This document shows, piece after piece, positions 9,014 through 34,377 of a stretch of DNA of 64,000 nt (the stretch's first letter is position 1; each line of letters begins with the position of its first letter). This DNA comes from Candidatus Latescibacterota bacterium (GTDB lineage: Bacteria > Latescibacterota > UBA2968 > UBA8231), in the NCBI GenBank assembly GCA_965243025.1, contig CBDETY010000003.1:2848001-2912000 (forward strand), read 5' to 3'. A program made the position numbers and the translations under genes. The notes under the pieces were generated by a model that did not search any database, was not told the DNA's origin, and worked only from the letters and a program-made list of their open reading frames with translations.

Positions 9014-9167
9014 GTCCCGCAGAGATAGATTGACAGAATCGGGATGCGGAGGCGCCCGGCTCACAGGGCGCCCCAGCGAGTCGTACCGAGGGTGTACGGC
9101 GAGCGTAGACAATGTCGTGAACCGGGATCGAGGGGAAATGCACCGGATGAGGATTTCATTGAACCGC
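9014..9167. repeat. Partial copy 3 of the MITE-like element
   Basis: gtcccgcagagatagattgacagaatcgggatgcggaggcgcccggctcacagggcgccccagcgagtcgtaccgagggtgtacgg closely matches the reverse complement of 6330-6415. It is a direct repeat of copy 2. Confidence 0.85.
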
Positions 9168-10329: not shown

Positions 10330-10366
10330 GGCTCCGATTGCTCCCTGTGTGTTGGCGCCGGGACCC

Positions 10367-11692: not shown

Positions 11693-12342
11693 GGGTCCTC
11701 TTTCTTCTTCTGTTTGGAAGCTGGCCGCGGGCGGATGTCCGGGGCCCCGGCTGCGATTCCCGGCAAGTCTATGGGATTCGCGCCGAGACTGTCAATTTGG
11801 ATTGCTGCCCGCCTCGATTCACCATTCGGTGAGCGCCTGGGCGATCCGCGAAGTCGAGGTGATCTTCTCACTTACTTCGCGGAACTTACTTCGCGGACTG
11901 GAGGTGAAGCTGATCGGACGCGGCGTAGGGTTCGCGCGAAATTTCCAGGGAAGTAAGAGGCAAGCCGTCCCGGGTGTCCCATGCTTTCCAATCACAAACC
12001 TCATCCAAATGAAAGGATGAAAAAATGAAAGATCTTCTCATGCTCTCTGGCCCCCTGGGCTACCACCGGGGAGCGTATCTTGAGCGCAATCGAGCAGGCG
12101 GGTGAGCTTCTCACGAGCCGGACCGGTTTCGTGGGGAGTTCATCATGAACGAGAGCGGCTCGTATTGCCAATGCTACTGACTTCGGGGAGTCCCGATTAG
12201 CGTCAAAGTCGACAGCATGGTCGTAACTGACCTCGGCCATTCTCCGATCATGCAGTACTTCTGGAGTGTGGCCGAGGTTCTTTTTCATTCCTTCTTGTCC
12301 CGCTGCTTCAACACAGGGTTACAGATCAAAGGTGGAGTTCAA

Positions 12343-13251
12343 ATGCAATTCCTTTCGTTCCGAAACGCTTTTTTTATCCTGCTCCCGACGATTGCTCTCG
12401 ATGCCCAGTGGTCGGACCGCGTCTATCCGATCAGGGAGCTGACCGACGAGATGCGGGCGCACATCGACATCAGGGACGGTTCGGTTGACGACTGGTCGGA
12501 GGTACTCGGCGAACCTGCCTTGACGGCACTGGATTTCGCCACTCACCCATCCTATCCGGAGTACGACCCGTCGTCCTTCGACTTTCGCGTCTGGCTTGCC
12601 TGGCACGATGCAGGCAACCACCTGTTCGTGGCCGCCGAGATCGTGGACGATATCTACGTAGGAATGTGGCCGGATAATCCTCCTGATTGGGCTCCCGCCG
12701 ATCGTCCTCCATTTTGGCAGCCTGCCGAAGGAACCGTTCAATTGTTGGTCGACGGCGACAGGAGTGGTGGGACGGTAGTCGAAACCGGAATGGAACAGGC
12801 GCAAGCGTATTGGGCGGTTGCCGAAAACCATGAAAACGGCAGCAACGTCTTTCTGAGTTTGGTGGGTCTCGATTATCCCTGGGTGCAACAGGTACCGTAC
12901 GCCGATGGCAGCGGGAGCGTACTGGACAGTCAGCCCGTCTTCTACGCGGTCGAGTTTTACGTCACCCCGTTTGACAGGTTGATTCCGGACTCCCCGGAGA
13001 ACAGCCTGGTATCCGACCTTTACGCCGGCAAAACGATAGGTTTTTCCATGGGGATTTCGGACTCTGACACGGACCCGTTAGAGGATGACCGTTATCACGC
13101 CTTGTCCGGACCTGACGACTCATGGGGAGAGGGAATTTTAGTGTCTGACCTGTGGGCGCACGGGATCCTTCTGGGTGCCGACGGCGGTACGGAGGGCACC
13201 GCGGCCGAATGGGTCACCTGGGGCCGCATCAAGGCCAGCCTGTCGGAGTAG
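12343..13251 (+). CDS. Secreted acidic protein, CBM9/DOMON-like sugar-binding fold, with C-terminal TWGRIKA motif
   Basis: ATG 12343 after GGAG. Hydrophobic N-terminus; DGSVDDW, VWLAWHDAGNHLFVAAEIVDD, VEFYVTPF and GKTIGF resemble CBM9-type domains; ends VTWGRIKASLSE. Confidence 0.7.
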   Translation: MQFLSFRNAFFILLPTIALDAQWSDRVYPIRELTDEMRAHIDIRDGSVDDWSEVLGEPALTALDFATHPSYPEYDPSSFDFRVWLAWHDAGNHLFVAAEIVDDIYVGMWPDNPPDWAPADRPPFWQPAEGTVQLLVDGDRSGGTVVETGMEQAQAYWAVAENHENGSNVFLSLVGLDYPWVQQVPYADGSGSVLDSQPVFYAVEFYVTPFDRLIPDSPENSLVSDLYAGKTIGFSMGISDSDTDPLEDDRYHALSGPDDSWGEGILVSDLWAHGILLGADGGTEGTAAEWVTWGRIKASLSE

Positions 13252-13744
13252 AGTTCCGGCCTCAACTCACCGCGGGATCTCTGAATCCACACCTCGCCGG
13301 TCAGCCTCAACGGACCCGGAACCTTCGTCCGCCACCTCGACCGCGAAGGCTCTTTCTGCACCCGCAAAAGCTCGTAGCAGGCGATCGGCCGTCGCGGCCA
13401 CCCGGCCACCGGGGTGCCCTGCCTGGTTGCGCGCGCACCGGCCCCTGAGCGACGGTCCGCTTCGGCGGTAACCAACCCAGCGTCGATAAACTATCTTTGG
13501 TTCTCCCCCAAGCTTGCGGTGGACTCACAGTCCGAGACGGTCCCTGGGGCGGTCGGACCCCGGAATGCCGGGGAAATCGACGCCCCTTCCATTCCCGCCG
13601 GAGTTCGAGGCGGTGTGCCACAGGGAGGATTCCTGTCATGCGAGCCCCGGAAATCCGAATTGGCATTGACTTCCCGCTGACAGCGGTTGGCTGGAGGCCA
13701 GGCTGTTGATGAGCCGCTGCATCCCTTCACCGAGCTGATTGGAA

Positions 13745-15310
13745 ATGCGGGTCCTTATCAGACCTGGAGGAAGGCTTTATCCGGCATTCATTGCCTTTCT
13801 CGTCTCCGCCTGCTCTCTCGCACCGGGCCGGAACCCTCCGGTTCTCGATTCAATTGAAAAACTCCCCGGCGAGTTTGCGGGAAGTGAAATCGACGGTTCC
13901 CACCAACCTGGTTCCCACCAACCTCTTGAGTGGTGGAAGGCTTTCGCCGACCCGGTCCTCGACCGGATAATCGAGGAGGTGCTCGCCTCGAACTTCGACC
14001 TCGCCGGAGCGGTCGCCCGGGTCGACCAGGCCAGGGCGCGGGAACGGATAGCGAGGGCGCCGGTGTTTCCGCTGCTCCAGCCTTCGGTCGGCGTCACCGA
14101 CTTCGACACACCGGCCAATGCGGGTATCGGCGCGCAACTGGACGAGGTTGGCCTGGGCCCGGACGCCCTGAGCGCATCCGGAATCGACATCCCCGACAGG
14201 CTCGGCCTGACCACCTGGCACATCGGCACCGAATTCGCCTACGAGCTCGATTTCTGGGGCCGCAACCGCAACGACGGGCGCGCCGCCGGAGCCGAGCGGC
14301 TGGCCTCCGAGTCCGACTACCTCGCTGCCCGCATGGGTGTGCTCGCCGAAACCGTGCGCACCTACCTGGAGATCGTCAACCTGCGCAGCCAGCGGAGGCT
14401 GGCAGGCGAAATCGTGGAAATCCTGCAGCACCGCGAGTCGCTGGCCGGGTCCCGTTACGGCCGCGGGCTGACCGATCTGACCCCCCTCCGCACGGCGCGG
14501 CGGAACCTGCGCAACGCGCAGGCCGAGCTGCCGCAGATCGAAGCTGTGCTGGCGGATGCGGAGGGGCGGCTCCGGGTGCTCCTGGGAGGTTTCCGCGCGG
14601 AACTTGCAGACCTGATGCCGGAATCCATGAAGCCTTCCCCAACCCTCGAACCGGTTCCCGCGGGGATTCCGGCCGATCTCCTTGTGCAGCGGCCCGACGT
14701 CAGCGCCGCCAGGCAGCGGGTCGAAGCGGCGCGCTACTCGGTCGGCGCCCGCCGCGCCGAGCTGCTGCCGAGGCTGTCCCTGTCCGGCTCCATCGGGCTG
14801 CAGAGCACGGAGTCGGGTGAGTTGTTCAACCCCGACCAATGGTTCCGCAATCTCAGCCTGAACCTGCTCGGCCCCGTGTTTCAGGGGGCGCGGCTGCGCG
14901 GCAATGTCGCCCTCGCGGAGGCCCGGCTGAACGAAGCCGCCGCGGCTTACGGGCGTTCGGTGGTGACCGCGGTAAGCGAGGTCGAAGCCGCCCTTGCGGG
15001 TCTGGAAGCGAGCCGCCGGCGCCACTCGCTGCTCGCATCCCTGGCGGAAGAGGCCCGGGCCGAATCGGCCTTGCAGGAGCAGCGGTACCTCTCCGGCGTG
15101 GGGGGCTACGAGGCTTTCCTGACCGCGGCCCACACCCTCCTAGGCGCACAGTCCGCACTGACGGCCGCGGAGCGCGACCTGGGTTATGCCCGTCTTGCCC
15201 TGCACCGCGCGCTCGGAGGTTCGTGGACCGCTGACGAAGGGGAAACCGTCCGCCAGAGCGAAGCAGCCCCGGCCGCCCCGCCCCGTTCTCTTCCGACCTC
15301 CACGGAGTAA
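13745..15310 (+). CDS. Outer-membrane efflux lipoprotein, NodT/OprM/TolC family
   Basis: Lipobox LVSAC, WWKAFADPVLDRII, YELDFWGR, PADLLVQRPDV, LHRALGGSW. Confidence 0.95.
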   Translation: MRVLIRPGGRLYPAFIAFLVSACSLAPGRNPPVLDSIEKLPGEFAGSEIDGSHQPGSHQPLEWWKAFADPVLDRIIEEVLASNFDLAGAVARVDQARARERIARAPVFPLLQPSVGVTDFDTPANAGIGAQLDEVGLGPDALSASGIDIPDRLGLTTWHIGTEFAYELDFWGRNRNDGRAAGAERLASESDYLAARMGVLAETVRTYLEIVNLRSQRRLAGEIVEILQHRESLAGSRYGRGLTDLTPLRTARRNLRNAQAELPQIEAVLADAEGRLRVLLGGFRAELADLMPESMKPSPTLEPVPAGIPADLLVQRPDVSAARQRVEAARYSVGARRAELLPRLSLSGSIGLQSTESGELFNPDQWFRNLSLNLLGPVFQGARLRGNVALAEARLNEAAAAYGRSVVTAVSEVEAALAGLEASRRRHSLLASLAEEARAESALQEQRYLSGVGGYEAFLTAAHTLLGAQSALTAAERDLGYARLALHRALGGSWTADEGETVRQSEAAPAAPPRSLPTSTE

Positions 15311-15316
15311 ACCCCC

Positions 15317-16528
15317 ATGTCCCGCATACGCAGCTTGATCGTTGCCGCCGCCATAATCGCGGTCTCCGTCGGCCTGGCGGCCTTTCTCGTTTCGCTGGCG
15401 CCGGAGCCGGCCCGCACCGAGCCGCCGCCGCCGGTCCCGTTCGCGCAGACCGGGCTGGTCAAGGCCGGGACCGGTCCCATACCGGTATTCGGAGCCGGTA
15501 CGGTGAGGCCGAGCGCGGAGATCGCAATCACTCCGCAAGTCGGCGGCAAGGTCGTCTGGGTGCATCCGGGATTCCGCAGCGGGGGACGGGTCGGGAAGGG
15601 CCAGGCGATCTTCCGCATCGAGGAAGCGGAATACCAGTACCGGGTGCGGGAGGCAAAGGCCAATCTCGCCGCCCGGCGGGTGGCCCTGCTTCAGGAAGAG
15701 GAACAGGCCGCCATCGCCCGCGGCCAGTACGAGCTTTACTCCGGCAGCCGGGGAGATACGGCATCGGCCGCGGCAAATCCCCTGACTCTGAGAGAACCCC
15801 AGCTCGAAGCCGCCCGCGCCGCCATGGACCGCGACGAAGCCCGCCTTGCCGAGGCGAACCTCGCCCTGTCGCGAACCCGGGTGACGGCCCCCTTCGACGG
15901 CTTCGTGCGCGAGGAGTCCGTTGACGCGGGGCAGGTCGTGAGCCCCGGCCAGCCGGTCGGGCGGCTTTTCTCCGCCGATGCCGTGGAAGTGGTCGTGTCC
16001 CTGTCCGACGCCGACGCCGCCCTGATCCCGGGGCTGTGGCAACTCGAGGCAGGCGACGGGAACCGAAAGGTGGCCGCCCGGGTGGTCGCCCGCTACGGCG
16101 GGGAGAGCTTTTCCTGGGAAGGTTTCGTCGATCGGGGCGAGGCGTCCCTCGACGAACAGACGCGCACCATCGACGTGATCGTGCGTGTGCCGGACCCGTT
16201 TTCCGCGAGCGTTCCGGCTGGCGGGGCAGGCGTCCCCGGGGGCAACCCGCCGTTGCTGGTGGGTGAGTTCGTCGAGGTGGAAATCCAGGGCCTCGAGCTC
16301 GATGGCTACTTCGAGGTGCCGCGGGCTGCCCTGCGCGCCGGCGACGAGGTCTGGATGGTCGACGAGGGCGGAGTCGTGAGCATCGTTCCGGTACGGGTGC
16401 TGCAGCGGGCGGACGACCGGGTATTCGCGACCGGCAGCCTCGGAAGCGGCGGGGCGGTGATCACCGGCGGGATCCAGTTCGCCACCCAAGGCATGCTCGT
16501 CAGGACCGGGGCGGACCCCTCGCCATGA
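15317..16528 (+). CDS. RND efflux periplasmic adaptor (MFP) subunit
   Basis: N-terminal TM anchor; lipoyl-like halves ITPQVGGKV and RTRVTAPFDG around a coiled coil; between the OMF and RND genes. Confidence 0.93.
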   Translation: MSRIRSLIVAAAIIAVSVGLAAFLVSLAPEPARTEPPPPVPFAQTGLVKAGTGPIPVFGAGTVRPSAEIAITPQVGGKVVWVHPGFRSGGRVGKGQAIFRIEEAEYQYRVREAKANLAARRVALLQEEEQAAIARGQYELYSGSRGDTASAAANPLTLREPQLEAARAAMDRDEARLAEANLALSRTRVTAPFDGFVREESVDAGQVVSPGQPVGRLFSADAVEVVVSLSDADAALIPGLWQLEAGDGNRKVAARVVARYGGESFSWEGFVDRGEASLDEQTRTIDVIVRVPDPFSASVPAGGAGVPGGNPPLLVGEFVEVEIQGLELDGYFEVPRAALRAGDEVWMVDEGGVVSIVPVRVLQRADDRVFATGSLGSGGAVITGGIQFATQGMLVRTGADPSP

Positions 16529-19500
16529 GTCCCAACGACGATTTCCACGGGGAACGGCCCGGACCGCTCGCCTACATGGCGGGCAACGGCGTCGCCGCCA
16601 ACCTGCTGATGTGGGCAATCATCGCCGCGGGACTGGTGTCGCTCACCGCCATCGAGCGCGAAGCCTGGCCGACCCAGTCCTTCTACCATATCGAAGTCTC
16701 CATGGCCTATCCCGGCGCCACGCCGGAGGAGATCGAGGAGTCGATCGTCGTAAAGATCGAGGACCAGGTCAGCGGGCTGGATGACGTGAAGGCGGTCAAG
16801 TCCGTAGCGGCCCCGGGCATGGCCTCGGTGCGGGTCCAGATGGATTACGACACCGACATGGCCCGGGCCCTGGACGATATCGAGTCTGCGGTCAGTCGCA
16901 TACCGTCCTTCCCGGCCGGCGCCGAACGTCCGCGGTTCCGGGAGATGGACAACCGCATGAGCATTATGCGGCTCATCGTCCACGGCGACGTCTCCGAGCG
17001 CTCGCTGAAGGAACTGGCGTACCAGATCGAGGACGACCTCACCACGCTCCCCTCCGTCTCCCAGGTGGAAGTCAGCGGGGTCCGGAGCTACGAGATCTCC
17101 ATCGAGGTTCCCCTTCACCGCCTGCGGGCCCTCGGACTCACGCTCACCGACATCGCCGGCACCATTCGCCGCAGTTCCCTGGACCTGTCGGCCGGCAGCA
17201 TCGATACCCGGGAATCCCAGGTCCGGGTGCGCACCCTCGGCCAGAACTACGACCAGCAGGACTTCGAGGAGATCGTCCTTCTCAGCGGCCGTGACGGCAC
17301 GGTCGTGCGCCTCGGCGATATCGCCGAGGTCCGCGACGGTTTCCAGGAAGCCGACCTGATCGTGCGGCACCAGAACCATCCCGCGGTCTTCGTCGAGGTC
17401 TACCGGGCCGGCGGCGAGCACGTGATGGACGTGGCCACCACCGTCCGCGAGCACCTGGCGAACGAGGTGATCCCGGCCCTGCCGGACGGCGTCGGCATCA
17501 CCATGTGGAACGACGAATCCCAGGTCTATGAGGAACGCGCCGATCTTCTCCTCAAGAACGGGATCCTGGGCATGTTGCTGGTGCTGATCGCGCTCAGCCT
17601 GTTTCTCGAAATCCGGCTCGCGCTCTGGGTCGCCGTGGGCCTCGCCGTTTCGGGTATCGGCGCCCTCGCCGTCATGATGGCATTCGACGTGGCGATCAAT
17701 ACCATCAGCCTGTTCTCCTTCGTCCTCGCCATAGGGATCGTCGTCGACGACGCCATCGTCGTGGCCGAGCACATTCGATACGAACGCCAGCGGGGAACAC
17801 CCGGGGTCACGGCCGCGATCCGCGGGGTACGGCGGATAAAGGTGCCGTTGACGTTCGCAGTCCTCACGTCGGTGGTGGCCTTCGTCCCGCTGCTGTTCAT
17901 CCCCGGCGGCATCGGCGACGTGTGGCGGGCCCTGCCGATCATCATGATCGCCATGCTGCTGGTTTCCCTGGTCGAATCGCTGCTGGTGCTGCCCAACCAC
18001 CTGTCCCACCTGCACGGCCCGGAGTGGGTGCCGGCCAATGCCTTCGACCGGTTCTTCGCGGGGCTGCAGGGGCGCGTGGACGCGCTGCTGAACAGGTTCG
18101 TGCAAGGGCCCCTGGACCGGGCCCTGAGGTTCGCCACGGCCCAGCCCGGAGTGACGATGGCGGGGGCCGTGGGAATGCTCGTGCTGAGCATCTCCCTTTT
18201 GCCCGCCGGGATCGTTCCTACCACGCTGGCCGCTGACGTGGAGGGGGATATCGCGACGGTCGTCCTGGAGATGCCCGACGGGGCGACCGCTCCGAGGACG
18301 TACGAGGTGGCGCAGGAACTGGAGGCCGCGGGCAACCGGGTCATCGAACGACTCTCGCGCGGCCGGCCCGGGGACGCGTCGCCGCTGCTGACCGGCGTGA
18401 CGGTGACCGTCGGGCTGGGCTCGAGACTCGAGGGCGGGCTCAATCCGGAGCCCACCCTCAACCCGCAAGCCAATATCGCCACCATCGAGTTCAAGCTCCT
18501 GGGCGCCCAACAGAGAGAGATCTCCACCGGAGAGGTCGTGCAGGCATGGCGGGAGGAGGTGGGTGTGCTGCCGTACGTGCGCGGCATCACCTTCAGCAGC
18601 GAGGTCTTCGACCTGGGCAACCCTGTCGAGGCGGTGCTTTCGCATCCGCATCCGGAACTTCTCGCCGAGATCGCGGACTCGGTGGTCGAAGGCCTCCGAA
18701 GTGTGGATGGCGTCTACGACATACGTTCGGACCACACCCCGGGAATCCCGGAAGTTCAGCTCGAGCTGCTTCCGGAAGCGCGCACACTCGGTCTCACGCT
18801 CGAAGAGCTGGCCGGGCAAACGCGCGCCGCCTTCTTCGGCGCCGAGGCGGTCCGGGTGCAGCGGGGCCGCGAAGAGGTCCGGGTCTACGTGCGCCTGCCC
18901 GAAGACGAGCGGAATTCGATCACCGACGTCGAAAGCTACCTGGTCCGCACGCCGGGCGGGGCCGAGGTCCCGGTCATGAGTGTGGCCTCCCTGAACCCGG
19001 GGGTGTCGCCGCCGGCCGTTCGACGGAAGGACGGCCAGCGCGTCGTCACGGTCACTGCGGACGTCGATGCTTCCGTGATTTCAGGCGACGAAGCCAACGA
19101 CATCCTGGCCAATTCCATCCTCGCGGACCTGACCGCCCTGCACCCGGACCTGACATTCAGTTTCGGCGGGGAACAGCAACAGCAGCTCGAATCCCTGGAC
19201 GCGCTGTACCGCGGGTTCGCGGTCGCCCTGATCATGATCTTCGCCCTCCTCGCCATCCCCCTCCGATCCTATACCAAGCCGTTCATAATCATGGCCGTGA
19301 TCCCCTTCGGATTCATCGGAGTGATCCTGGGTCACTGGATCCTCGGAGTAGCCCTGAGCGCCGTATCCTTCATGGGGATCTTCGGCCTGAGCGGGGTGGT
19401 GGTGAACGATTCCCTGGTCATGCTCGATTTCATCGATCAGAAACTCGGGGAAGGCGTCCCGGCAAGGACTGCGGTCGTGGAGGGAGCCAAGGGGCGCTTT

Positions 19501-19719
19501 CGTCCGATCATGCTCACTTCCCTGACTACGTTCCTCGGCTTCACGCCCCTCATCCTGGAACGCGCCATCCAGGCCCAGTTCCTGATCCCCTTTGCCGCCT
19601 CGCTCGGTTGCGGCATCCTCTTCACCACGGCCATACTCATGATGGTCGTTCCCGCGCTCTACACCATCCATCTGCGTCTGATTGCTTCGGGGCGCCGTTC
19701 CGGCACCGGCAGCGCGTAG
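16525..19719 (+). CDS. RND efflux permease (AcrB/AcrD/AcrF family)
   Basis: 1064 aa with two TM bundles; YPGATPEEIEESI, GIVVDDAIVV, GVVVNDSLV, RFRPIMLTSLTT. Confidence 0.96.
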   Translation: MSPNDDFHGERPGPLAYMAGNGVAANLLMWAIIAAGLVSLTAIEREAWPTQSFYHIEVSMAYPGATPEEIEESIVVKIEDQVSGLDDVKAVKSVAAPGMASVRVQMDYDTDMARALDDIESAVSRIPSFPAGAERPRFREMDNRMSIMRLIVHGDVSERSLKELAYQIEDDLTTLPSVSQVEVSGVRSYEISIEVPLHRLRALGLTLTDIAGTIRRSSLDLSAGSIDTRESQVRVRTLGQNYDQQDFEEIVLLSGRDGTVVRLGDIAEVRDGFQEADLIVRHQNHPAVFVEVYRAGGEHVMDVATTVREHLANEVIPALPDGVGITMWNDESQVYEERADLLLKNGILGMLLVLIALSLFLEIRLALWVAVGLAVSGIGALAVMMAFDVAINTISLFSFVLAIGIVVDDAIVVAEHIRYERQRGTPGVTAAIRGVRRIKVPLTFAVLTSVVAFVPLLFIPGGIGDVWRALPIIMIAMLLVSLVESLLVLPNHLSHLHGPEWVPANAFDRFFAGLQGRVDALLNRFVQGPLDRALRFATAQPGVTMAGAVGMLVLSISLLPAGIVPTTLAADVEGDIATVVLEMPDGATAPRTYEVAQELEAAGNRVIERLSRGRPGDASPLLTGVTVTVGLGSRLEGGLNPEPTLNPQANIATIEFKLLGAQQREISTGEVVQAWREEVGVLPYVRGITFSSEVFDLGNPVEAVLSHPHPELLAEIADSVVEGLRSVDGVYDIRSDHTPGIPEVQLELLPEARTLGLTLEELAGQTRAAFFGAEAVRVQRGREEVRVYVRLPEDERNSITDVESYLVRTPGGAEVPVMSVASLNPGVSPPAVRRKDGQRVVTVTADVDASVISGDEANDILANSILADLTALHPDLTFSFGGEQQQQLESLDALYRGFAVALIMIFALLAIPLRSYTKPFIIMAVIPFGFIGVILGHWILGVALSAVSFMGIFGLSGVVVNDSLVMLDFIDQKLGEGVPARTAVVEGAKGRFRPIMLTSLTTFLGFTPLILERAIQAQFLIPFAASLGCGILFTTAILMMVVPALYTIHLRLIASGRRSGTGSA

Positions 19720-19750
19720 TGCAATTCACGATGCAGGGAGGCTGAGGCTG

Positions 19751-21784
19751 ATGGCTGATACTACCGAGGGCTTGACGACCCCACCCCTGACTCTGACCCA
19801 GGAACTCATCCTGATGCTCCTCAACGAGGAGACCGGCTACTTTCACCAGGTACCCGGCTGGCACCTGAACTGCGCCGTGGTCGGTGCCGTGCTCGCGGAG
19901 CTTTCACTCCAATCTCGCATCGACACGGACATGGAATCCCTCTTCCTCGTGGACGCGTCGGAAACGGGCAACCCGGCCCTGGACCCCATCCTCGAGGAAA
20001 TCGCGAACGCACCGAGGCAACACAACGCCCAGTACTGGATCGAACGGCTCGCTCCCCGTGCCGAGTCGATCATCGATTCGGTCCTGGACCGCCTGGTTGA
20101 CCTGAAGATCCTGGAATACCACGACGGCGAATTCTGGACACTGGCTCCTGCCGTCCGGCATGGGGAACTGTCCGGCACGTCGGAGGAGGGCACTGAGGGC
20201 CAGTTCATAAGGACCCGTATCAGCAGGGTCATCTTCACCGACGAGATACCCGATCCGAGAGATGTCATCATTATCTGCCTCGTCAATACCTGCGACGTAT
20301 TCCGTTTCATATTCCAGCTCGACGACGAGGCGGAGGAGCGCATCGAGTTCATCTGCAGGATGGACCTGATCGGCCGCTCCCTGGCGGCTGCGGTCTCTCA
20401 GAACCTCGCCGGCCCGGCCCTTCAACGCCCTGCCCTTGCCAGGAAGATCCCGACGGTTTCGCTCACCAAGCTGCTGCGGAACCCCCATGTTCGAGACGGC
20501 AACCTGAACGCGCTCTTCGGGAGCCTTGCGGAGGAGTACGGTCCGGTGTTCCAGATCCGCCCTCCCTTCTCGAAGCCCATGATCTTCCTGGCCGGACTCG
20601 AGGCAAACCGCTGGGTGCACAAGCGGGGGCGCATGTACCTGAGAGCCAGGGACTACTTCAGCGACTTCGAGAAGGTCTACGGCGCCTCCGGCGTCCTGCC
20701 CGCCCTGGACGGCGCCGATCACTTCCGGCTTCGCAAGTCCCTGTCGCCGGCCTATTCCGCCGGGAGGCTGGGAGGGCAGCTGGACCAGCTCTACAACCAG
20801 GGGCGCAAGTACATGGCGAGCTTGACGGTAGGGGACTCCTACCGCGCCACGTCCATGTGCCGGGAGATGGTGAACGCGCAGCTCTCGCCGCTGTTCATCG
20901 GCGTCGAAACCCAGGACCTCATGGACGACCTGATGGCCTACAAAATGCGGGCCCTCAGCGTGCACATCGCCAAGCTCCTGCCAAGGTTCACGCTGAACAC
21001 CCCGGGCATGAGACGCCGGGCGAAAGCCCTGGACATACTGATGCAGCGGGTCGAGAGCGTCCATACCCCCGCCCAACGGGCGGACAGCCCGCGGGACCTG
21101 GTGGACGATTACCTCAGCTTGCACGCGAGCGACCCCCAGTTTCTCCCGGAGTCCAACCTGCGGTTCGCCTTTTCCGCGGCCCTGATCGCCAGCGTGTACC
21201 TCGGGGATACGTTCAGCCTCGTAGTCTACGCCATGGCGTCGCAGCCCGACCTCTACGCCCGGATCCAGGCCGAAGCAGATGCCCTGTTCGCCAAGGGCGA
21301 CCCCGAAAGAGAGGACTTCACCCCCGCCAACATCGACGTGACGCACCGCTTCCTGATGGAGTGCCTGCGCATGTACCCCATCGTCTCCATGTCCATTCGG
21401 AACGTGATGAATACCTGCGTGGTCGAGAATCACGAGCTGCCCATGGGGGAACGGATCCACATCGCCATGACCGCCACGCATTACATGAGCGACGTCTTTC
21501 CCGACCCCTGCAAGTTCGACATCGACCGCTACCTGCCGCCGCGCCATGAGCATCGCAACCCCGGGTACGCCCCGTACGGGCTGGGCACGCACAAGTGTCT
21601 CGGCACCCGCTGGATGGAGCTGCACCTGGCGGCCAACCTGCTGATGCTGGCGCACTACTTCACTATTGAGGTGTCCCCGGAGAAGTACAAGACCAAGCTC
21701 CGTTTCAGTCCCTTTCCGTCGCTGAAACCGAGCAAGAAGCTGAAGTTCCGCATCTCCGGGCAGAGGCGCGAGCTGCCCGCCTGA
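19751..21784 (+). CDS. GPP34/GOLPH3-like domain fused to cytochrome P450
   Basis: The N-terminal ~220 aa (LTLTQELILMLLNEETG..VGAVLAELSLQSRI..GNPALDPILEEI..VLDRLVDLKIL) resemble GPP34. The C-part has the ExxR motif MECLRMYP, the meander DIDRY and the heme motif PYGLGTHKCLG. ATG 19751 follows GAGG. Confidence 0.88.
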   Translation: MADTTEGLTTPPLTLTQELILMLLNEETGYFHQVPGWHLNCAVVGAVLAELSLQSRIDTDMESLFLVDASETGNPALDPILEEIANAPRQHNAQYWIERLAPRAESIIDSVLDRLVDLKILEYHDGEFWTLAPAVRHGELSGTSEEGTEGQFIRTRISRVIFTDEIPDPRDVIIICLVNTCDVFRFIFQLDDEAEERIEFICRMDLIGRSLAAAVSQNLAGPALQRPALARKIPTVSLTKLLRNPHVRDGNLNALFGSLAEEYGPVFQIRPPFSKPMIFLAGLEANRWVHKRGRMYLRARDYFSDFEKVYGASGVLPALDGADHFRLRKSLSPAYSAGRLGGQLDQLYNQGRKYMASLTVGDSYRATSMCREMVNAQLSPLFIGVETQDLMDDLMAYKMRALSVHIAKLLPRFTLNTPGMRRRAKALDILMQRVESVHTPAQRADSPRDLVDDYLSLHASDPQFLPESNLRFAFSAALIASVYLGDTFSLVVYAMASQPDLYARIQAEADALFAKGDPEREDFTPANIDVTHRFLMECLRMYPIVSMSIRNVMNTCVVENHELPMGERIHIAMTATHYMSDVFPDPCKFDIDRYLPPRHEHRNPGYAPYGLGTHKCLGTRWMELHLAANLLMLAHYFTIEVSPEKYKTKLRFSPFPSLKPSKKLKFRISGQRRELPA

Positions 21785-21795
21785 GGCGCTGCGAA

Positions 21796-22827
21796 GTGGG
21801 GCTGGGAAAGCTTTCGAGAGAGCTGAGAGACGCGTACCGGGGATCGCCCGTGGCGCGGCGGGTCCGGCACTTCGAGGGCTGGCTCGACCGGGCGGCGGCG
21901 GAGCCAGGTGGCGCGGGGTACGACCACACTGAAACAGCGAAAGACTATTACGACCTCTGCAGCGGGTTCATGGTGTGGGGCTGGGGCGAATCCCTGCACT
22001 TCGCCCCCCTCACGCCTCATGAGAGTCTGGAGGAGTCCAAGGTCCGGCACCAGCGGGCGATGATCTCCGAGTTGGAGCTGCAACAGGGTATGACGGTGGT
22101 CGACGTCGGTTGTGGGGTCGGCGGCCCCATGCGCCGCGTCGTCCGTGAGGCCGGGGTCAGGGTCGTGGGCATCAACATCAATGAGATCCAGTTGGAAATG
22201 GCGAAGAGGTTGAACGCCGAGGCGGGGCTCGATCACATGGTCGATTTCGAGACCTGCAGCTTCATGGACATGAGCGCCATCGAGGACGACACCTTCGACC
22301 GGGGGTATGCCATAGAGTCAACCTGCCATGCGCCGGACAAGCAACGCGCCTTCGAGGAGGTTTTCCGCGTGCTGAAACCCGGTGCCCTGTTCTGGGGGCA
22401 GGAAATGTGTCTGACGGACAAGTTCGATCCGCAGGACGACCGGCACCGGGCCATCGAGCAGGATCTCATGCGCGGCATTGCGCTGAAGGACATCGCCACC
22501 TTCGGGGAAGTGGATCACGCGCTCCAAGCCGCGGGATTCCAAGTCATGGAAGGGATGGACCGGGACGTCCAGGAGGGACCCTCCACACCTTGGTACAAGC
22601 CCATGGAGAGTCGCCACGGGGCGTTGGGCAACGCCTTGCGCAGGCTTCCGTGGGGCCGCAAGGCCTTCCTCGCAGGATCGAAGCTGGCGGAAGTGCTGCG
22701 GCTCTTTCCGAAAGGCTCCGCCGAAGTGGTCCGATTCCTCGATCGAACCGCGCAGGCTTATGTCGCGGGGGGCAAGGCGGGAATCTTCACGCCGCTGTAC
22801 TGTTTTCTGGCTCGCAAGCCTCTTTAA
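21796..22827 (+). CDS. SAM-dependent sterol C24-methyltransferase-like (ERG6/SMT family)
   Basis: YYDLCSGFMVWGWGESLHFAP (SMT region I-like), VDVGCGVGGPMR, YAIESTCHAP, VFRVLKPG, and a Sterol_MT_C-like end VAGGKAGIFTPLYCFLARKP. Confidence 0.88.
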   Translation: MGLGKLSRELRDAYRGSPVARRVRHFEGWLDRAAAEPGGAGYDHTETAKDYYDLCSGFMVWGWGESLHFAPLTPHESLEESKVRHQRAMISELELQQGMTVVDVGCGVGGPMRRVVREAGVRVVGININEIQLEMAKRLNAEAGLDHMVDFETCSFMDMSAIEDDTFDRGYAIESTCHAPDKQRAFEEVFRVLKPGALFWGQEMCLTDKFDPQDDRHRAIEQDLMRGIALKDIATFGEVDHALQAAGFQVMEGMDRDVQEGPSTPWYKPMESRHGALGNALRRLPWGRKAFLAGSKLAEVLRLFPKGSAEVVRFLDRTAQAYVAGGKAGIFTPLYCFLARKPL

Positions 22828-22938
22828 GCCTGGATGACAGGCCGGTCCTCGCCTTGGAATGGAGGGGCATCGGCGATCGTTCAGCGGGGCCGCCCACCAG
22901 GACGGAAACGGCCAGGTACGGCAGGTGTCGGGCGAGAG

Positions 22939-24024
22939 TTACCCGACCTCGCCGGACTCTGCCGTTTCACCCCCGGCGCCGTCCGGCTCAAGTTGCGGAT
23001 AGAACTGCCGGCAGTACCGGCGGTACTGCCCTATGGGGCCGTCGGCCGCACACAGCCTGGGGACAGGCCGGTACTGCTTCCGCTCCCAGATCACCACGTC
23101 CTGCAGGACATCCTGTTGCTGTTGTGACAGCAGAATGCGGTTCATCAGCCTGCTGCGAAGCTTCATCGGAAGAAACCCCAGGCCCGAGATGAACCGCCGC
23201 GGCCTGCGGATGTCCCGCATCTGGCTGACCAGTGCGAGATCGATGAGAGTGCCGTCAACGGGCGTTGCCAGCACCCACAATCGAGTATTCATACCGATGG
23301 TTTTCTCGTGGATTTCGACGAAGGAGTACCCCAGTCCATGGACGTGGGTGACGGCCGAGGTTTCGTGCACGAGGTCCTTTACCCCCAGGATCCTGCGGAC
23401 CCGTTTGAAATCGAAGCAGCTCTTCAGGTAGGGGCCGTCGACCGTGACCGTACCGACCGGATTCACGTTGTCGTAGCCGTGCACGTAGCGCAGGTGTCCC
23501 AGGTCCACGGAGTTCTCGGCCGTCTCCTGGGGATGGCCGCGGAACCGGAGGGTCCTGAATCCCGGCTTCCCCCACTCCGGGCCGCCGGGGGGGTCGTCCG
23601 GAAGGTGCCAGTGCGGAGGACGGCCGCCGCTGCCGAACCAGGCGAAGACCATGCCGAGGATCTCCCTGGTCTCGTAAACCTTCAGTTTCGCGGCTTTGGG
23701 AGCCGGGGCGTTCGGAGTGGCGACGCACTGGCCGGTCGTGTCGAACTCAAACCCGTGAAACGGACAGACGAGGCGGCCGTCGCACACCTGGCCGCCGACC
23801 TCCGGCCCCAGGTACGAACCCAGGTGGGGACATACCGCGTCGGCCACGCAGACTCGGCCTGCCTCGTCGCACCAGGCGACGATTTCCTCCCCCAGCCAGG
23901 TTTTCTCGATCAGTTTCTCACGCAGAATGGACTCGCGGGTTTCTACGAAATACCACCCCTCGGGGAACGCCGGCAACTCGTCGATTCGATTCAAGGCAGG
24001 TCGTTGGGAGTTGCTGACTGGCAT
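22939..24024 (-). CDS. Rieske non-heme iron oxygenase (KshA/Neverland cholesterol 7-desaturase-like)
   Basis: FPEGWY N-terminus; Rieske motif CPHLG..CPFHG; mononuclear Fe motif ENSVDLGHLRYVH; C-terminal QDVVIWERKQY..LCAADGPIGQYRRYCRQFY, as in KshA/Neverland-type enzymes. Confidence 0.88.
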   Translation of the reverse strand: MPVSNSQRPALNRIDELPAFPEGWYFVETRESILREKLIEKTWLGEEIVAWCDEAGRVCVADAVCPHLGSYLGPEVGGQVCDGRLVCPFHGFEFDTTGQCVATPNAPAPKAAKLKVYETREILGMVFAWFGSGGRPPHWHLPDDPPGGPEWGKPGFRTLRFRGHPQETAENSVDLGHLRYVHGYDNVNPVGTVTVDGPYLKSCFDFKRVRRILGVKDLVHETSAVTHVHGLGYSFVEIHEKTIGMNTRLWVLATPVDGTLIDLALVSQMRDIRRPRRFISGLGFLPMKLRSRLMNRILLSQQQQDVLQDVVIWERKQYRPVPRLCAADGPIGQYRRYCRQFYPQLEPDGAGGETAESGEVG

Positions 24025-24118
24025 GTCCGGAGATCCTGTCATCAGCACCGAGATAATATCAGAGTTATGCAAGTTCCCTGGTATGAAATGCCCAGGGGGG
24101 AACCCGAGGGTGATTCAG

Positions 24119-25270
24119 TCACCTGACTGAACCACCGCCGCCGTGAACTTCGACCGTCATGTGATCGAAACGATCCCGGTCCCACTGCGCTCCCCAGCCC
24201 GGTTCCGTCGATGGGGTGATTTGTCCGTCCTCGATGACCGGGGTGTTGAGCATGCCCCAGACCGCCCCCTTGTCGGTGAAGTCGTCGAGCCCCGCCTCGT
24301 AGAAGCTGGTGTTTTCAATGCAGCAGCCCAGGTGGGCATGGACCTGTCCGAACAGTCCCCCTTCGGCGTTCAACTCGACGGTTGTGCCGTGCATCTCGGC
24401 GAAGTGGGCCATCTTCAGCACCTGGGTGGCTCCGAAACGGGCGTTTGCCCGCAGCAGGTCGGTGGCTCCCGATATCAGTCTTTGCGTCGACAGGCCGATA
24501 TCCCCCATCAGCGTCTCGTTTCCCATGACCGGCATGTCCAGTTCCCGGCAGAGCACCCGATACTGATTCTCTTTCTGCTCGTGCATCGGCTCTTCCAGCC
24601 AGACGAAGTCGAGCTCTTCCATCACGTGACCGACCTCTATGGCTTCCCGCAGCGTGTAGGAACAGACCGGGTCGTTGAGTAAAAGGTAATCAGGGCCTAC
24701 TGCGTCGCGGACCTCCCGGAAAATCGGAATGTCCGCTTTGCCCCCTTTGTAACTGTGGAATTTGTAGGCGTCGATTCCGCGCTTCCTGCCCTCCTCGATC
24801 ACCTCCAGGTACACCTCGAGCGGGCTGTCGCTGCTGGTGAGGTACACCGGGAAACGATCGCGCACCCGGCCGATGAGGTCGCAAACAGGCATGCCCGCCG
24901 CTTTGCCGAGGATATCCCACAGGCAGTTGTCGAAGCTGCCCGCCCAGCCGGCGGTCCCCTGATACATCCAGCGGTTGCCCTTCCACAGCAGCTGATAGAG
25001 CCGTTCCCGATTCAGCGGATTTTCCCCCAGAACCTGGGTTCGCAACACCTCGGCCTGGCCGGGTGTCATAGTCGTCGTGGAGATCCCGTCGATGCCTTCG
25101 TCGGTCTGCACTTTCAGGAAGTTCATCCGCAAAGGTTTGTCGCTTGCAAAGCTCTTTCCACCGTGGGTGTACTGGATCCGCGACAGTCCCGGCACTTCCC
25201 GGAGTTTGAAGCAAGGCTGTTTCTGTTCCGGATTTTCGAGAACGATCAGTTTCACTTCCGTTATTCTCAT
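24119..25270 (-). CDS. Mandelate racemase/muconate lactonizing (enolase superfamily) enzyme
   Basis: MRITEVK start; DNCLWDILGKAAGMPV, YKFH, LLNDP, WLEEP, GNET, PGWG. Confidence 0.9.
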   Translation of the reverse strand: MRITEVKLIVLENPEQKQPCFKLREVPGLSRIQYTHGGKSFASDKPLRMNFLKVQTDEGIDGISTTTMTPGQAEVLRTQVLGENPLNRERLYQLLWKGNRWMYQGTAGWAGSFDNCLWDILGKAAGMPVCDLIGRVRDRFPVYLTSSDSPLEVYLEVIEEGRKRGIDAYKFHSYKGGKADIPIFREVRDAVGPDYLLLNDPVCSYTLREAIEVGHVMEELDFVWLEEPMHEQKENQYRVLCRELDMPVMGNETLMGDIGLSTQRLISGATDLLRANARFGATQVLKMAHFAEMHGTTVELNAEGGLFGQVHAHLGCCIENTSFYEAGLDDFTDKGAVWGMLNTPVIEDGQITPSTEPGWGAQWDRDRFDHMTVEVHGGGGSVR

Positions 25271-25423
25271 GTCTCTGGCGAGCCTGTTGAGAGGATTTGT
25301 CTGTTCGGTCGATCCTGCAGACAGCGAGCGAGGCATCTGTCCAGTCTGCCTCGATGCTCGATGTCAGGGGTGTGACCCGGGCCTTTCTGGTACAAGCCGC
25401 CTGGAAACCACGCTTGTTGCCGG

Positions 25424-28087: not shown

Positions 28088-28103
28088 GGGAACCGCACCC
28101 CTT

Positions 28104-30104: not shown

Positions 30105-30201
30105 GGTTGCGAGCTCGAGAAAGCGCCGGATCGCCTTATTGCGATTCTCCAGTTTGGAATGAACCTATGAAAAACAAAGGTTCCTTCGAAAGACCCCCAG
30201 G

Positions 30202-34060: not shown

Positions 34061-34377
34061 TATGGACCTTCCTGCTCGCGGTCTCCGCGAGAATGGGTGC
34101 GCTGCCTCAGGCTCCCGGCAACGTACTTTCTTCAGCCTCAAACGCCAACCGGCAATGGAGGAACCCTGCCCCTGGATTTCCCGCGCGGGAGACAGCACAG
34201 GATCCGCAATCGCTCGCCGGCGGCCGGCGGGTACGACGGAAGGCTCATGAACGACAAGACTGTTCTGAAGAAAGGAAGCGTGACCTTTCCCGAGGACCGC
34301 ATCCGGATCAGCTGCCGGGCCCCCCGGCCGCTGTGTTTCCGGTTGGCAACGCCGGGTTTCCGGCAGGAGATGAAACC

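Follow-up and report, generated by a model that had tools for sequence, protein, structure and literature searches.

The sterol operon of Methylococcus capsulatus combines sdmA and sdmB (C-4 demethylation) with the sterol-transport genes bstA, bstB and bstC, and the RND-type transporter encoded by bstA is thought to move sterols outward (PMC10942540, available sections). Bacterial sterol C-24 methyltransferases (SMTs) have been described from sponge and environmental metagenomes (Brown et al., 2023, PMC10070321; Brown & Welander, 2025 preprint, 10.64898/2025.12.19.695621). Some of them are clustered with other sterol genes; these clusters are presented as pathways of de novo sterol synthesis containing homologues of erg and sdmAB, and the main text names neither a P450 fusion nor a Rieske gene nor a transporter. 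Fusions of GPP34 to a cytochrome P450 have been reported only in sponge symbionts, where 656 of 663 long-form GPP34 proteins, from many phyla, have this architecture; GPP34–Rieske and GPP34–ABC-ATPase fusions were also described (Ferreira et al., 2025, PMC11706023, available sections). The words sterol and methyltransferase have 0 occurrences each in the available main text of that paper. The parts have been published separately, and no paper linking all of them was found.

Here, a 64,000-nucleotide stretch of a Candidatus Latescibacterota contig (the window) was analysed. Whereas the available text of Ferreira et al. (2025) proposes phosphatidylinositol-4-phosphate (PI4P) binding and interference with phagocytosis, the fusion is now placed as one member of a conserved enzyme-plus-transporter cassette, which suggests that its carriers chemically edit host sterols. 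Like the Methylococcus operon, the cassette sets enzymes of sterol-tailoring type, including a Rieske-type oxygenase, beside an RND-superfamily transporter; as with BstA and HpnN, its variants in Chloroflexota, Nitrospinota and other groups use an MMPL transporter of the same Pfam family. Compared with the available description of that operon, it differs in that its Rieske protein is not an SdmA equivalog, sdmB and a BstB-type periplasmic binding protein are absent, the pump in the window is an AcrB-type tripartite system and not an MMPL transporter, the host genome is without sterol synthesis and the module is mobile across phyla.

Layout of the locus

The proteins of the window were searched with Pfam profiles, and all six genes of the cassette were confirmed at their reported positions, with scores far above the curated cut-offs (Table 1); these included the matches to Sterol_MT_C, GPP34, p450 and Rieske/KshA_C that an earlier note on this DNA had proposed to check. 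The genes for the outer-membrane factor (OMF), the membrane-fusion protein (MFP), the AcrB-type RND permease, the GPP34–P450 fusion and the SMT homologue form a head-to-tail run with junctions of −4 to 31 bp, and the gene for the Rieske/KshA_C oxygenase is convergent with this run, in agreement with the five co-directional genes with gaps of at most about 30 bp described in the earlier note. The OMF and MFP genes are separated by 6 bp and the MFP and RND genes overlap by 4 bp. The RND stop codon lies 31 bp from the fusion ATG at 19751, which is preceded by GGGAGG about 10 nt upstream; the fusion stop is 11 bp from the GTG of the SMT gene, and 111 bp separate the SMT and Rieske stops. A promoter and terminator scan remained at chance level, and the RNA-library contigs are short; a single transcription unit is a candidate at most. 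The linkage is found again in most of 80 related loci, drawn from many phyla, so the arrangement is not due to chance.

Table 1. Features of the cassette and of the surrounding island (window coordinates; scores in bits).
Feature	Coordinates	Strand	Evidence
Outer-membrane factor, NodT-type lipoprotein, 523 aa	13739..15310	+	Pfam OEP 147 bits; NCBIfam TIGR01845 outer_NodT 280 bits vs cut-off 210
Periplasmic adaptor (membrane-fusion protein), 403 aa	15317..16528	+	Pfam HlyD_3/HlyD_D23; NCBIfam RND_mfp 156 bits vs 95
AcrB/MexB-type (HAE1-like) RND permease, 1064 aa	16525..19719	+	Pfam ACR_tran 527 bits, profile positions 10-1019 of 1021
GPP34–cytochrome P450 fusion, 677 aa from ATG 19751 (alternative start 19682)	19682/19751..21784	+	Pfam GPP34 108 bits + p450 118 bits, one frame
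SMT-family SAM-dependent methyltransferase, 343 aa	21796..22827	+	Methyltransf_11 (PF08241) 64 bits; Sterol_MT_C (PF08498) 59 bits vs cut-off 21.7
Rieske non-haem-iron oxygenase, KshA-type C-terminal domain, 361 aa from ATG 24024 (alternative start 24072)	22939..24024/24072	-	Pfam Rieske 56 bits; KshA_C 79 bits, profile positions 2-207 of 207
Variable island of ~18.4 kb enclosing the cassette	11804..30194	.	Collinear flanks in same-genus genome G051

The enzymes and the pump

The methyltransferase groups with the sterol methyltransferases and not with tocopherol or other methyltransferases. Its C-terminal domain is the sole Sterol_MT_C match in the genome (profile search). Along almost all of its length the protein shares 41% identity with 'cycloartenol-C-24-methyltransferase 1-like [Oryza sativa]' and 42% with 'sterol methyltransferase [Candidatus Poriferisocius sp.]' (names as given by their sources), and in a tree of 110 rows (quick search, midpoint root) it nests inside the SMT family as a separate monophyletic clade of 22 rows (SH-aLRT 100). 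Functional residues were mapped by spacing and through an alignment (A3) whose references are named SMTs other than yeast ERG6; they are given in yeast numbering. Of the 25 residues that functional SMTs share (list from Brown & Welander, 2025 preprint, 10.64898/2025.12.19.695621), the mapping by spacing finds 23 retained; the two exceptions are F89, which is L here, and T78, which is S. Outside these 25, Y81, a side-chain-contacting position, is replaced by M. Neither M81 nor L89 varies among the 81 clade members. Region I reads GWGESLHF, preceded by M81 and W83, in place of the canonical GWGxxFHF with aromatic residues at 81 and 83; the canonical relatives in the alignment have YEYGWGxSFHF. 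Region II (DxGxGxxGP), E195 of Region III, G217 of Region IV and the C-terminal residues G333, L341, G352, F357 and P359 are retained at the expected spacing, and nearly all of them are invariant or nearly so in the 81 clade members.

Judged from its sequence, the protein is an SMT-family member from a diverged subfamily, which forms its own clade and has an altered sterol-binding Region I. It shares with the SMTs of Brown and coworkers the methyltransferase domain followed by Sterol_MT_C, Regions II–IV, the C-terminal residues and the source habitat; it differs in the invariant M81 and L89, whereas F89 is kept in every SMT found active so far. Since the clade has L where all SMTs shown active in the 2025 preprint have F89, and M at the side-chain-contacting position 81, its members may belong to those homologues that did not act on desmosterol and 24-methylenecholesterol. 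No published activity or assay attributable to the clade was found in the literature. The earlier designation as an ERG6/SMT-type enzyme holds for family membership, by domain and tree; what must be qualified is the type, the subfamily being diverged and without documented activity.

In the fusion, GPP34 (about 19793–20398) is N-terminal to the P450 domain (about 20501–21781) within one polypeptide of 677–700 residues according to Pfam, which is the identical two-domain 'GPP34_L' architecture found in the available sections of Ferreira et al. (2025, PMC11706023). Forty-six homologues align over their whole length with 39–94% identity, and an AlphaFold2 model (pLDDT 83, pTM 0.77) has a low-confidence linker near residues 225–235. 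By profile, the nearest solved structure to the P450 domain is Methylococcus CYP51 (116 bits, about 20% identity); Foldseek ranked CYP51 together with P450 BM3 and CYP184A1, with CYP51 no closer than BM3. Given this score and identity and a genome without an oxidosqualene cyclase (OSC), the assignment as a CYP51 orthologue (sterol 14-alpha-demethylase) was rejected, and the domain is only distantly CYP51-like. The genome holds two P450 genes in all.

The translation of the Rieske gene, the only KshA_C gene of the genome, contains the cluster ligands CPH...CPFH (CxH...CxxH) and the iron site D-x2-H-x4-H; together with the KshA_C domain these make it a KshA-type protein. The best solved relatives are KshA, the oxygenase of 3-ketosteroid 9-alpha-hydroxylase (116 bits by profile; PDB entries 4qdc and 2zyl), with which it has in common the Rieske [2Fe-2S] domain, the mononuclear-iron motif and the KshA_C-type C-terminus. 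The resemblance lies mainly in the N-terminal ∼180 residues (7–180), and, in contrast to KshA, neither a KshB-type reductase nor a steroid-catabolic context was found among the conserved cassette neighbours; nor was a conserved ferredoxin or reductase partner (clustering of ORFs of at least 90 aa). Identity as an SdmA equivalog was rejected (NF052579, 31 bits against a cut-off of 600, Rieske domain only). The Rieske protein, like the P450, is only a distant relative of steroid enzymes. No membrane-spanning segments were predicted in the SMT, fusion or Rieske proteins.

The OMF has a lipobox-like LVSAC at its N-terminus and the MFP has a single N-terminal hydrophobic segment; with the ACR_tran permease, encoded by a gene in the same abutting or overlapping series, they constitute a tripartite HAE1-type RND pump. 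The permease is of the ACR_tran type, and an HpnN/BstA-type MMPL transporter with a sterol-sensing-like domain was rejected. Its best solved relatives are multidrug RND pumps (∼230 bits). It scored below the NCBIfam curated cut-offs for every named subfamily and no specific substrate was therefore assigned.

Linkage, mobility and source of the substrate

Genes within 10 kb of the SMT gene were surveyed in 80 related loci, 53 of which had at least 9 kb on both sides (full-flank loci). The fusion was present in 73, the Rieske gene in 68 and an RND-superfamily transporter in 62 of the 80 loci. In the full-flank loci these became 51 and 49 of 53 for the fusion and the Rieske gene, and SMT, fusion and Rieske occurred together in 47. 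The genes are thus strongly co-conserved across genomes, as the earlier note had required for its reading. Gene order and strand differ between lineages while the linkage persists, which has therefore been kept through rearrangement. An ERG4_ERG24 sterol reductase (250 bits) is encoded in seven of the cassette loci.

An RND-superfamily transporter was likewise found in 47 of the 53 full-flank loci, of AcrB type in 21 and of MMPL/sterol-sensing-domain type in 26 (MMPL, 16; Sterol-sensing/Patched SSD, 10); six had no transporter nearby. Over all 80 loci, the AcrB-type permease was linked to the SMT gene in 30, with 63–91% identity across phyla (Gemmatimonadota, Latescibacterota, Acidobacteria, Opitutales, Gammaproteobacteria and Rhodothermaceae), an OMF in ten (67–75% identity) and an MFP in 16, and the transporters of 32 other loci have the MMPL fold with a sterol-sensing-like domain. 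The enzymes remain when one transporter type is exchanged for the other, which argues for transport as a component of the function. The RND exporter to which the enzymes had been said to be coupled is indeed linked to them, with the qualification that the AcrB type is one of two types and is replaced by the MMPL/sterol-sensing-domain type in other lineages. The broader proposal of steroid-tailoring enzymes coupled to a trans-envelope exporter is supported by the co-conservation, the SMT family assignment and the genome-wide absence of OSC and squalene epoxidase.

The SMT is 70–90% identical across about 14 phylum-level groups (by record titles) and is present in four of 40 relatives and in neither of two same-genus genomes. 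In one of the latter (G051) the flanks of the island are collinear with the window (9277–11803 with C10:916073–918595 and 30195–34214 with C10:923164–927182) and enclose only about 4.6 kb; the island is missing from that genome, which has no SMT gene. In another genome (G054) the block from OMF to Rieske is 84–87% identical at the DNA level and lies in a different genomic context. The cassette is horizontally acquired and mobile, and occurs in many bacterial phyla of sponge metagenomes; three runs labelled 'sponge metagenome' (X7, X9 and X20, the last an RNA library) together span all 30 bins at an identity of at least 85%.

A profile search of the genome, which is 96% complete, gave no match to SQHop_cyclase_C, SQHop_cyclase_N, SE or osq_cycl; the absence of an OSC noted earlier for the window extends to the whole genome and to squalene epoxidase. 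As the genome has neither a triterpene cyclase nor a squalene epoxidase, the substrate is probably exogenous. An ERG4_ERG24 sterol reductase is present outside the cassette. Among the carrier genomes, a fusion of squalene epoxidase and OSC was found in 11 of 51 and a hopene cyclase in 21 of 50 (six of six examined exceeded the TIGR01507 cut-off), so that a hopanoid substrate is conceivable in the latter. Neither cyclase is present in this genome or in 26 of 50 other carriers, and hence the carriers have no self-made triterpenoid in common.

Candidate function and alternatives

We consider the cassette to be a horizontally mobile module for editing a sterol and transporting the product outward in bacteria of sponge metagenomes, with a probability of about 0.6. 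From family knowledge we infer the substrate and its turnover by the enzymes, each reaction, the role of GPP34 and the direction and purpose of transport, as follows. The sterol would reside in the cytoplasmic membrane, taken here from the host or surroundings and possibly self-made in about one fifth of carrier genomes, those with an OSC. The P450 would oxidise it, kept at the membrane by its N-terminal GPP34, which would bind lipid or membrane. In the step of the SMT-family enzyme, a double bond of the side chain would receive a methyl group from SAM; the altered Region I of this enzyme may shift the substrate or the site that is methylated. Hydroxylation or desaturation of the sterol would fall to the KshA-like Rieske oxygenase. 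An RND-superfamily transporter would remove the product from the inner membrane, in this genome as an AcrB-type tripartite pump across both membranes and elsewhere as an MMPL/sterol-sensing-domain protein.

It is possible, but unlikely, that the substrate is not a sterol but another isoprenoid lipid with a terminal double bond (a hopanoid such as diploptene, squalene or a sponge terpenoid) that is tailored and exported. This would accord with the departure of the clade from the Region I consensus of all sterol-active SMTs, with the distant relationship of the P450 and Rieske proteins to steroid enzymes and with the squalene–hopene cyclases of the 21 carriers, but the lack of either cyclase in this genome and the 26 others, the co-occurrence of ERG4_ERG24 reductases and squalene-epoxidase–OSC fusions with the cassette, and the retention of Regions II–IV and of the sterol-methyltransferase C-terminal domain argue for a sterol.

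We regard as more doubtful still the hypothesis of Ferreira et al. (2025) that the fusion is a host-directed effector, its GPP34 domain binding host PI4P and blocking phagosome maturation, with the neighbouring genes unrelated to it. It draws on the binding of PI4P by eukaryotic GPP34/GOLPH3, the restriction of the fusion to sponge symbionts and the expression of GPP34 genes by 45 of 107 MAGs in a sponge metatranscriptome (PMC11706023, available sections). Against it, the fusion accompanies SMT in the 73 loci, and usually a Rieske oxygenase and a lipid-type transporter are linked as well. The fusion lacks a hydrophobic, signal-like segment at its N-terminus, and its GPP34 domain resembles Vps74 very remotely (19 bits, confined to the N-terminal part), so that a conserved PI4P pocket is at most a candidate feature. 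As a P450, the protein would depend on haem and on electron donors in the cytoplasm, which also speaks against an effector. The GPP34–Rieske and GPP34–ABC-ATPase fusions in the available sections of PMC11706023 fit a shared lipid-handling module.

That the pump is an ordinary multidrug efflux system which adjoins the enzyme genes by happenstance in this genome is highly improbable: the permease does share its broad family with multidrug pumps and reaches no named-subfamily cut-off, but its AcrB-type relatives lie beside SMT genes in six named groups, a different RND-superfamily lipid transporter substitutes for it in the 32 further loci, and the G054 block carries pump and enzymes as one piece of DNA.

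Layout of the cassette and its three enzymes

Genes in the window were called from an ORF listing combined with codon-position GC, and protein families were assigned with Pfam and NCBIfam. The earlier note had described five co-directional genes with gaps of at most about 30 bp and a convergent Rieske oxygenase gene; the ORFs and family matches bear out this six-gene set, and given the gene assignments, spacing and convergence that observation stands as written. The five plus-strand genes are spaced, in order, by 6, −4, 31 and 11 bp, and 111 bp separate the convergent genes for the sterol-methyltransferase homologue (SMT) and the Rieske oxygenase. Membrane-spanning segments are predicted in the adaptor and the permease and in none of the three enzymes. 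A promoter and terminator scan of 12000-25500 returned one promoter-like and six terminator-like sites, which does not exceed the level in shuffled sequence, and is uninformative on operon structure. The upstream ORF and the MR_MLE gene were left out of the cassette because neither is kept beside the SMT gene elsewhere. The variable island that holds the cassette also encodes two large proteins, of 941 and 666 aa, whose FlgD_ig and CHU_C C-termini resemble type IX secretion signals; an F5/8 type C domain is present in one of them, and neither gene is conserved beside the SMT gene elsewhere.

Location of the cassette genes and of other features. Plain numbers are window positions; L011, L032, L039 and L062 are loci around SMT homologues, L085 and L086 other loci of the window genome, and L101 and L103 genes resembling oxidosqualene cyclase (OSC).
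Feature	Location	Strand	Family assignment
NodT-type outer-membrane factor (OMF)	13739-15310	+	Pfam/NCBIfam
Membrane-fusion protein	15317-16528	+	Pfam/NCBIfam
AcrB-type RND permease	16525-19719	+	Pfam/NCBIfam
GPP34 (N-terminal) and cytochrome P450 (C-terminal), one frame	ATG 19751, end 21784	+	Pfam/NCBIfam
Class I methyltransferase with terminal Sterol_MT_C (SMT)	21796-22827	+	Pfam/NCBIfam
Rieske and KshA_C protein	22939-24024	-	Pfam/NCBIfam
ORF upstream of cassette	12217-13251		no Pfam or NCBIfam match
MR_MLE gene	24119-25336		MR_MLE
941-aa protein	25424-28249	-	
666-aa protein	28104-30104	-	
Stretch of ~114 bp	~9018-9140		
Second, short GPP34 gene of window genome	C3:3872561-3873154 (L086:9550-10206)	+	GPP34, 147 bits
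Sole ERG4_ERG24 gene of window genome	C3:3148259-3149320 (L085:9257-10396)	-	ERG4_ERG24, 125 bits
TPR protein genes 3' of SMT (examples)	L032:11059-11808; L039:11049-11798; L062:16980-17771		weak TPR matches
Outer-membrane beta-barrel gene (example)	L011:7827-8723		OMP_b-brl
OSC-like open frames (examples)	L101:1-3399; L103:1-3444	+	

A search with the SMT over 1.84 billion cluster representatives gave 254 with E ≤ 1e-30. The nearest named relatives are a Candidatus Poriferisocius 'sterol methyltransferase' (42% identity) and the rice 'cycloartenol-C-24-methyltransferase 1-like' protein (41%), and in a tree of 110 rows (quick search, no bootstrap) the protein nests in the SMT family, as the earlier note had supposed. 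Judged from these comparisons it is an SMT-family member and a predicted methyltransferase. According to the accessible part of a preprint (Brown & Welander 2025, 10.64898/2025.12.19.695621), 25 residues are shared by every SMT, bacterial or eukaryotic, that was active in assays, Y81 (yeast numbering) is placed beside the docked sterol side chain and 11 SMT homologues were inactive. By spacing and alignment to named SMTs, the window protein keeps 23 of these 25 residues, with T78 replaced by S and F89 by L, and has M in place of Y81. All 81 of 81 clade members have M81 and L89, and in the tree the proteins with this pair of residues group as a single clade (22 rows, SH-aLRT 100) whose long stem lies within the SMT family. 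Since all active SMTs in the accessible part of the preprint keep F89, none of them belongs to this clade. Other bacterial SMTs have been shown to be active, as far as the part of the source at hand extends (Brown et al. 2023, PMC10070321).

The solved structure closest to the P450 domain by profile is Methylococcus CYP51 (116 bits, covering almost the entire domain, ~20% identity). An AlphaFold2 model of the fusion was confident (pLDDT 83, pTM 0.77) with a weak inter-domain linker; Foldseek returned generic P450s (BM3, CYP184A1, CYP51 and CYP120) at TM ~0.77-0.81 of target, which does not discriminate function. That the domain is a CYP51 orthologue is ruled out by the ~20% identity and by the Foldseek rank shared with BM3 and CYP184A1.

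In the part of Ferreira et al. (2025; PMC11706023) available, the GPP34-P450 architecture is described as exclusive to sponge symbionts and a role in PI4P binding and interference with phagocytosis is proposed; neither sterols nor methyltransferases are mentioned in the main text. In a check for the PI4P pocket by pairwise comparison with solved structures, the GPP34 domain matched Vps74 alone (19 bits, N-terminal part). GPP34-Rieske and GPP34-ABC-ATPase fusions, reported in the same portion of that paper, fit a lipid-module reading, and it is proposed here that GPP34 serves the P450 as a module that binds membranes or lipids. The second GPP34 gene of the window genome, which is short, is set among luciferase-like monooxygenase, aldolase and SDR genes. 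A Mutator-family transposase lies 3 kb from it, and no P450 is among the neighbours examined.

In the Rieske protein the ligands of both the cluster and the iron are present and the KshA_C domain is complete; the top solved relative of the protein is KshA, mainly over the N-terminal half. By NCBIfam comparison it is not an SdmA equivalog. A steroid-degradation pathway is unlikely in the window genome, which holds a single KshA_C gene and only two P450 genes.

Conservation across phyla and exchange of the transporter

SMT homologues were sought in one genome per prokaryote species, which gave at least 306 encoding stretches, and the best 80 were taken together with flanks of up to 10 kb. Linkage was assessed by tblastn with the window proteins and by all-against-all clustering of locus ORFs (≥90 aa, 30% identity, 60% coverage, single linkage), which misses small ferredoxins and undercounts fragmented genes. 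By record title, and in our own grouping, these best 80 of at least 306 fall into about 14 phylum-level groups: Gemmatimonadota (including Longimicrobiales and Candidatus Palauibacter), Latescibacterota, Chloroflexota/Dehalococcoidia, Nitrospirota, Nitrospinota, Acidobacteria, Actinomycetes/Acidimicrobiaceae, Opitutales, Bacteroidota/Rhodothermaceae, Alpha-, Gamma- and 'Delta'-proteobacteria, Thermodesulfobacteriota, Spirochaetia and Candidatus Dadabacteria. SMT identity across them is still 70-90%.

The GPP34-P450 fusion lies near the SMT in 73 of these best 80 loci (51 of the 53 whose flanks both reach at least 9 kb), the Rieske oxygenase in 68 (49 of 53) and an RND-superfamily transporter of any kind in 62 (47 of 53). 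The earlier note had taken the window genes for one system; SMT, fusion and Rieske are indeed found together in 47 of the 53 full-flank loci. Gene order and strand vary by lineage (RND-fusion-SMT, RND-SMT-fusion, or Rieske-SMT-fusion with the pump on the opposite strand), so the linkage has outlived rearrangement.

Six of the 53 full-flank loci lack a transporter: the Nitrospira/Nitrospirales loci L011, L017, L027 and L028, and the loci L030 and L078. An AcrB-type permease 63-91% identical to that of the window occurs in 30 of the best 80 loci (Gemmatimonadota, Latescibacterota, Acidobacteria, Opitutales, Gammaproteobacteria and Rhodothermaceae). Its place is taken in 22 loci, all Chloroflexota, by a ~826-aa protein that matches MMPL and Sterol-sensing/Patched-SSD and is a distant relative of MmpL4/5, HpnN, MmpL3, Patched and Dispatched; a second MMPL/SSD protein (~775 aa) is found in 10 loci from other phyla. 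This non-orthologous exchange beside constant enzymes is the strongest computational argument that transport is part of the function of the cassette. To our knowledge few bacterial sterol transporters are known; should the cassette act on sterols, the swap between AcrB and MMPL types beside the same enzymes would be a natural experiment for finding them.

Three further genes recur among the best 80 loci. An ERG4_ERG24 sterol reductase (250 bits) is present in seven. A TPR protein of ~250 aa is encoded 3' of the SMT in 12; in several phyla the distance is 23-160 bp, in others it is greater. By analogy with BstC, a TPR-like sterol binder, this protein may be an accessory component of the cassette; the window has no gene for it. 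An OMP_b-brl gene adjoins the Rieske gene ~1.2-1.5 kb upstream of the SMT in seven loci, Nitrospirota and Nitrospinota included.

Source of the substrate

In the window genome (96% complete, 6% contamination), SQHop_cyclase_C, SQHop_cyclase_N, squalene epoxidase and the NCBIfam model for OSC all gave no match, and de novo sterol synthesis in it is rejected on these four family searches; the absence of OSC, which the earlier note had recorded for the window, thus holds genome-wide. Its sole ERG4_ERG24 gene lies ~236 kb past the window end, next to a gene for a 969-aa PQQ dehydrogenase with ankyrin repeats, a eukaryote-like feature.

A strong cyclase match was obtained in 21 of 50 other carrier genomes (completeness not reported), and all six examined of these 21 are squalene-hopene cyclases above the TIGR01507 cut-off. 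Near-full-length OSC-like matches of 714-752 bits occur in 11 of the 50; the curated cut-off of 851 is passed in none of the 51 genomes including that of the window. Neither a hopene cyclase nor an OSC-like gene is present in 26 of the 50, whose completeness is not reported. The OSC-like cyclases are contained in open frames of 980-1255 aa. A catalytic motif of the DCTAE type is present in all four genes inspected (L101-L104), and both genes scanned with Pfam read SE and FAD_binding_3, then SQHop_cyclase_N and _C; from this domain order the frames look like squalene-epoxidase-oxidosqualene-cyclase fusions. Some carriers could make their own sterols and most, including the window genome, apparently cannot, which leaves an exogenous substrate as the only candidate common to all carriers. 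Sponge tissue is rich in sterols.

That the cassette edits and exports a sterol is given a probability of about 0.6. The SMT, P450 and Rieske oxygenase would each modify the sterol, and its outward transport would serve envelope building, detoxification or supply to a host. The closest known system, from the part of the source available, is the sdmAB-bstABC operon of Methylococcus (PMC10942540); a paper describing the whole cassette (GPP34-P450, SMT, Rieske and exporter) was not found in the open-access literature. SMT and ERG24-CYP51-LSS clusters are enriched in Ircinia symbionts according to the accessible part of Kelly et al. (2022; PMC9531527). If the sterol reading holds, two puzzles of the sponge microbiome, the symbiont-only GPP34-P450 and the enriched bacterial SMTs, are joined into one testable unit, and the fusion gains a concrete biochemical hypothesis that rivals the phagosome-effector idea. 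The reading would also bear on the debate over sponge sterane biomarkers. The widespread SMT clade has an altered sterol-binding region and is without documented activity. Because most carriers are without a sterol cyclase (an OSC-like gene is absent in 40 of 51), counts of OSC-bearing genomes would understate bacterial capacity for sterol side-chain modification.

Mobility and occurrence in sponge metagenomes

The SMT was found in four of 40 relatives of the window genome (0/2 of the same genus, 1/22 others of the same family and 3/16 of the same class). In the same-genus genome G051 the flanks are collinear (window 9277-11803 at 91%, 30195-34214 at 92%) and enclose ~4.6 kb, against 18.4 kb in the window. 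In G054, of the same family and a different genus, OMF to SMT match as a single 9-kb block (87% DNA identity) and the identity of the Rieske gene is 84%, between flanking sequences unrelated to those of the window. With the SMT sparse among relatives, the island absent from G051 and the whole block set in unrelated flanks in G054, the cassette is an accessory island whose genes travel together.

Public runs labelled 'sponge metagenome' contain parts of the window. The four runs compared with it are all stored as contigs, and variation in depth from gene to gene reflects a mixture of many organisms. Three of the sponge-labelled runs (X7, X9 and X20) span 30 of 30 bins at ≥85% identity; as the contigs come from many organisms, this indicates presence and not expression. 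The listed pieces of X20, an RNA library, are only 285-464 nt long, with none seen bridging a gene junction, and show neither transcription nor co-transcription.

A much broader proposal is improbable: that the cassette is a pan-phylum mobile module for editing host sterols and a core adaptation to sponge life, in which symbionts with no sterol synthesis of their own would take in host sterols, alkylate and oxidise them with three enzymes (the divergent SMT, the P450 tethered to the membrane and the Rieske oxygenase) and return the products, GPP34 being a lipid-handling module and not a PI4P-directed effector. Were it true, part of the unconventional sterols of sponges would be products of bacterial editing and not made by the animal, and such editing could cover side-chain methylations without a known enzyme, for example at C-26.

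At 81-89% identity, dozens of matches to the ~114-bp stretch upstream of the cassette lie in the related genome G054, and several lie in G051 and a further related genome, G052. A high-depth contig of X9 (record 29) joins the RND end (window 19658) to the SMT (21919) across 231 other letters and leaves out the fusion gene, an arrangement that agrees with the RND-SMT-fusion order of the Acidobacteria loci.
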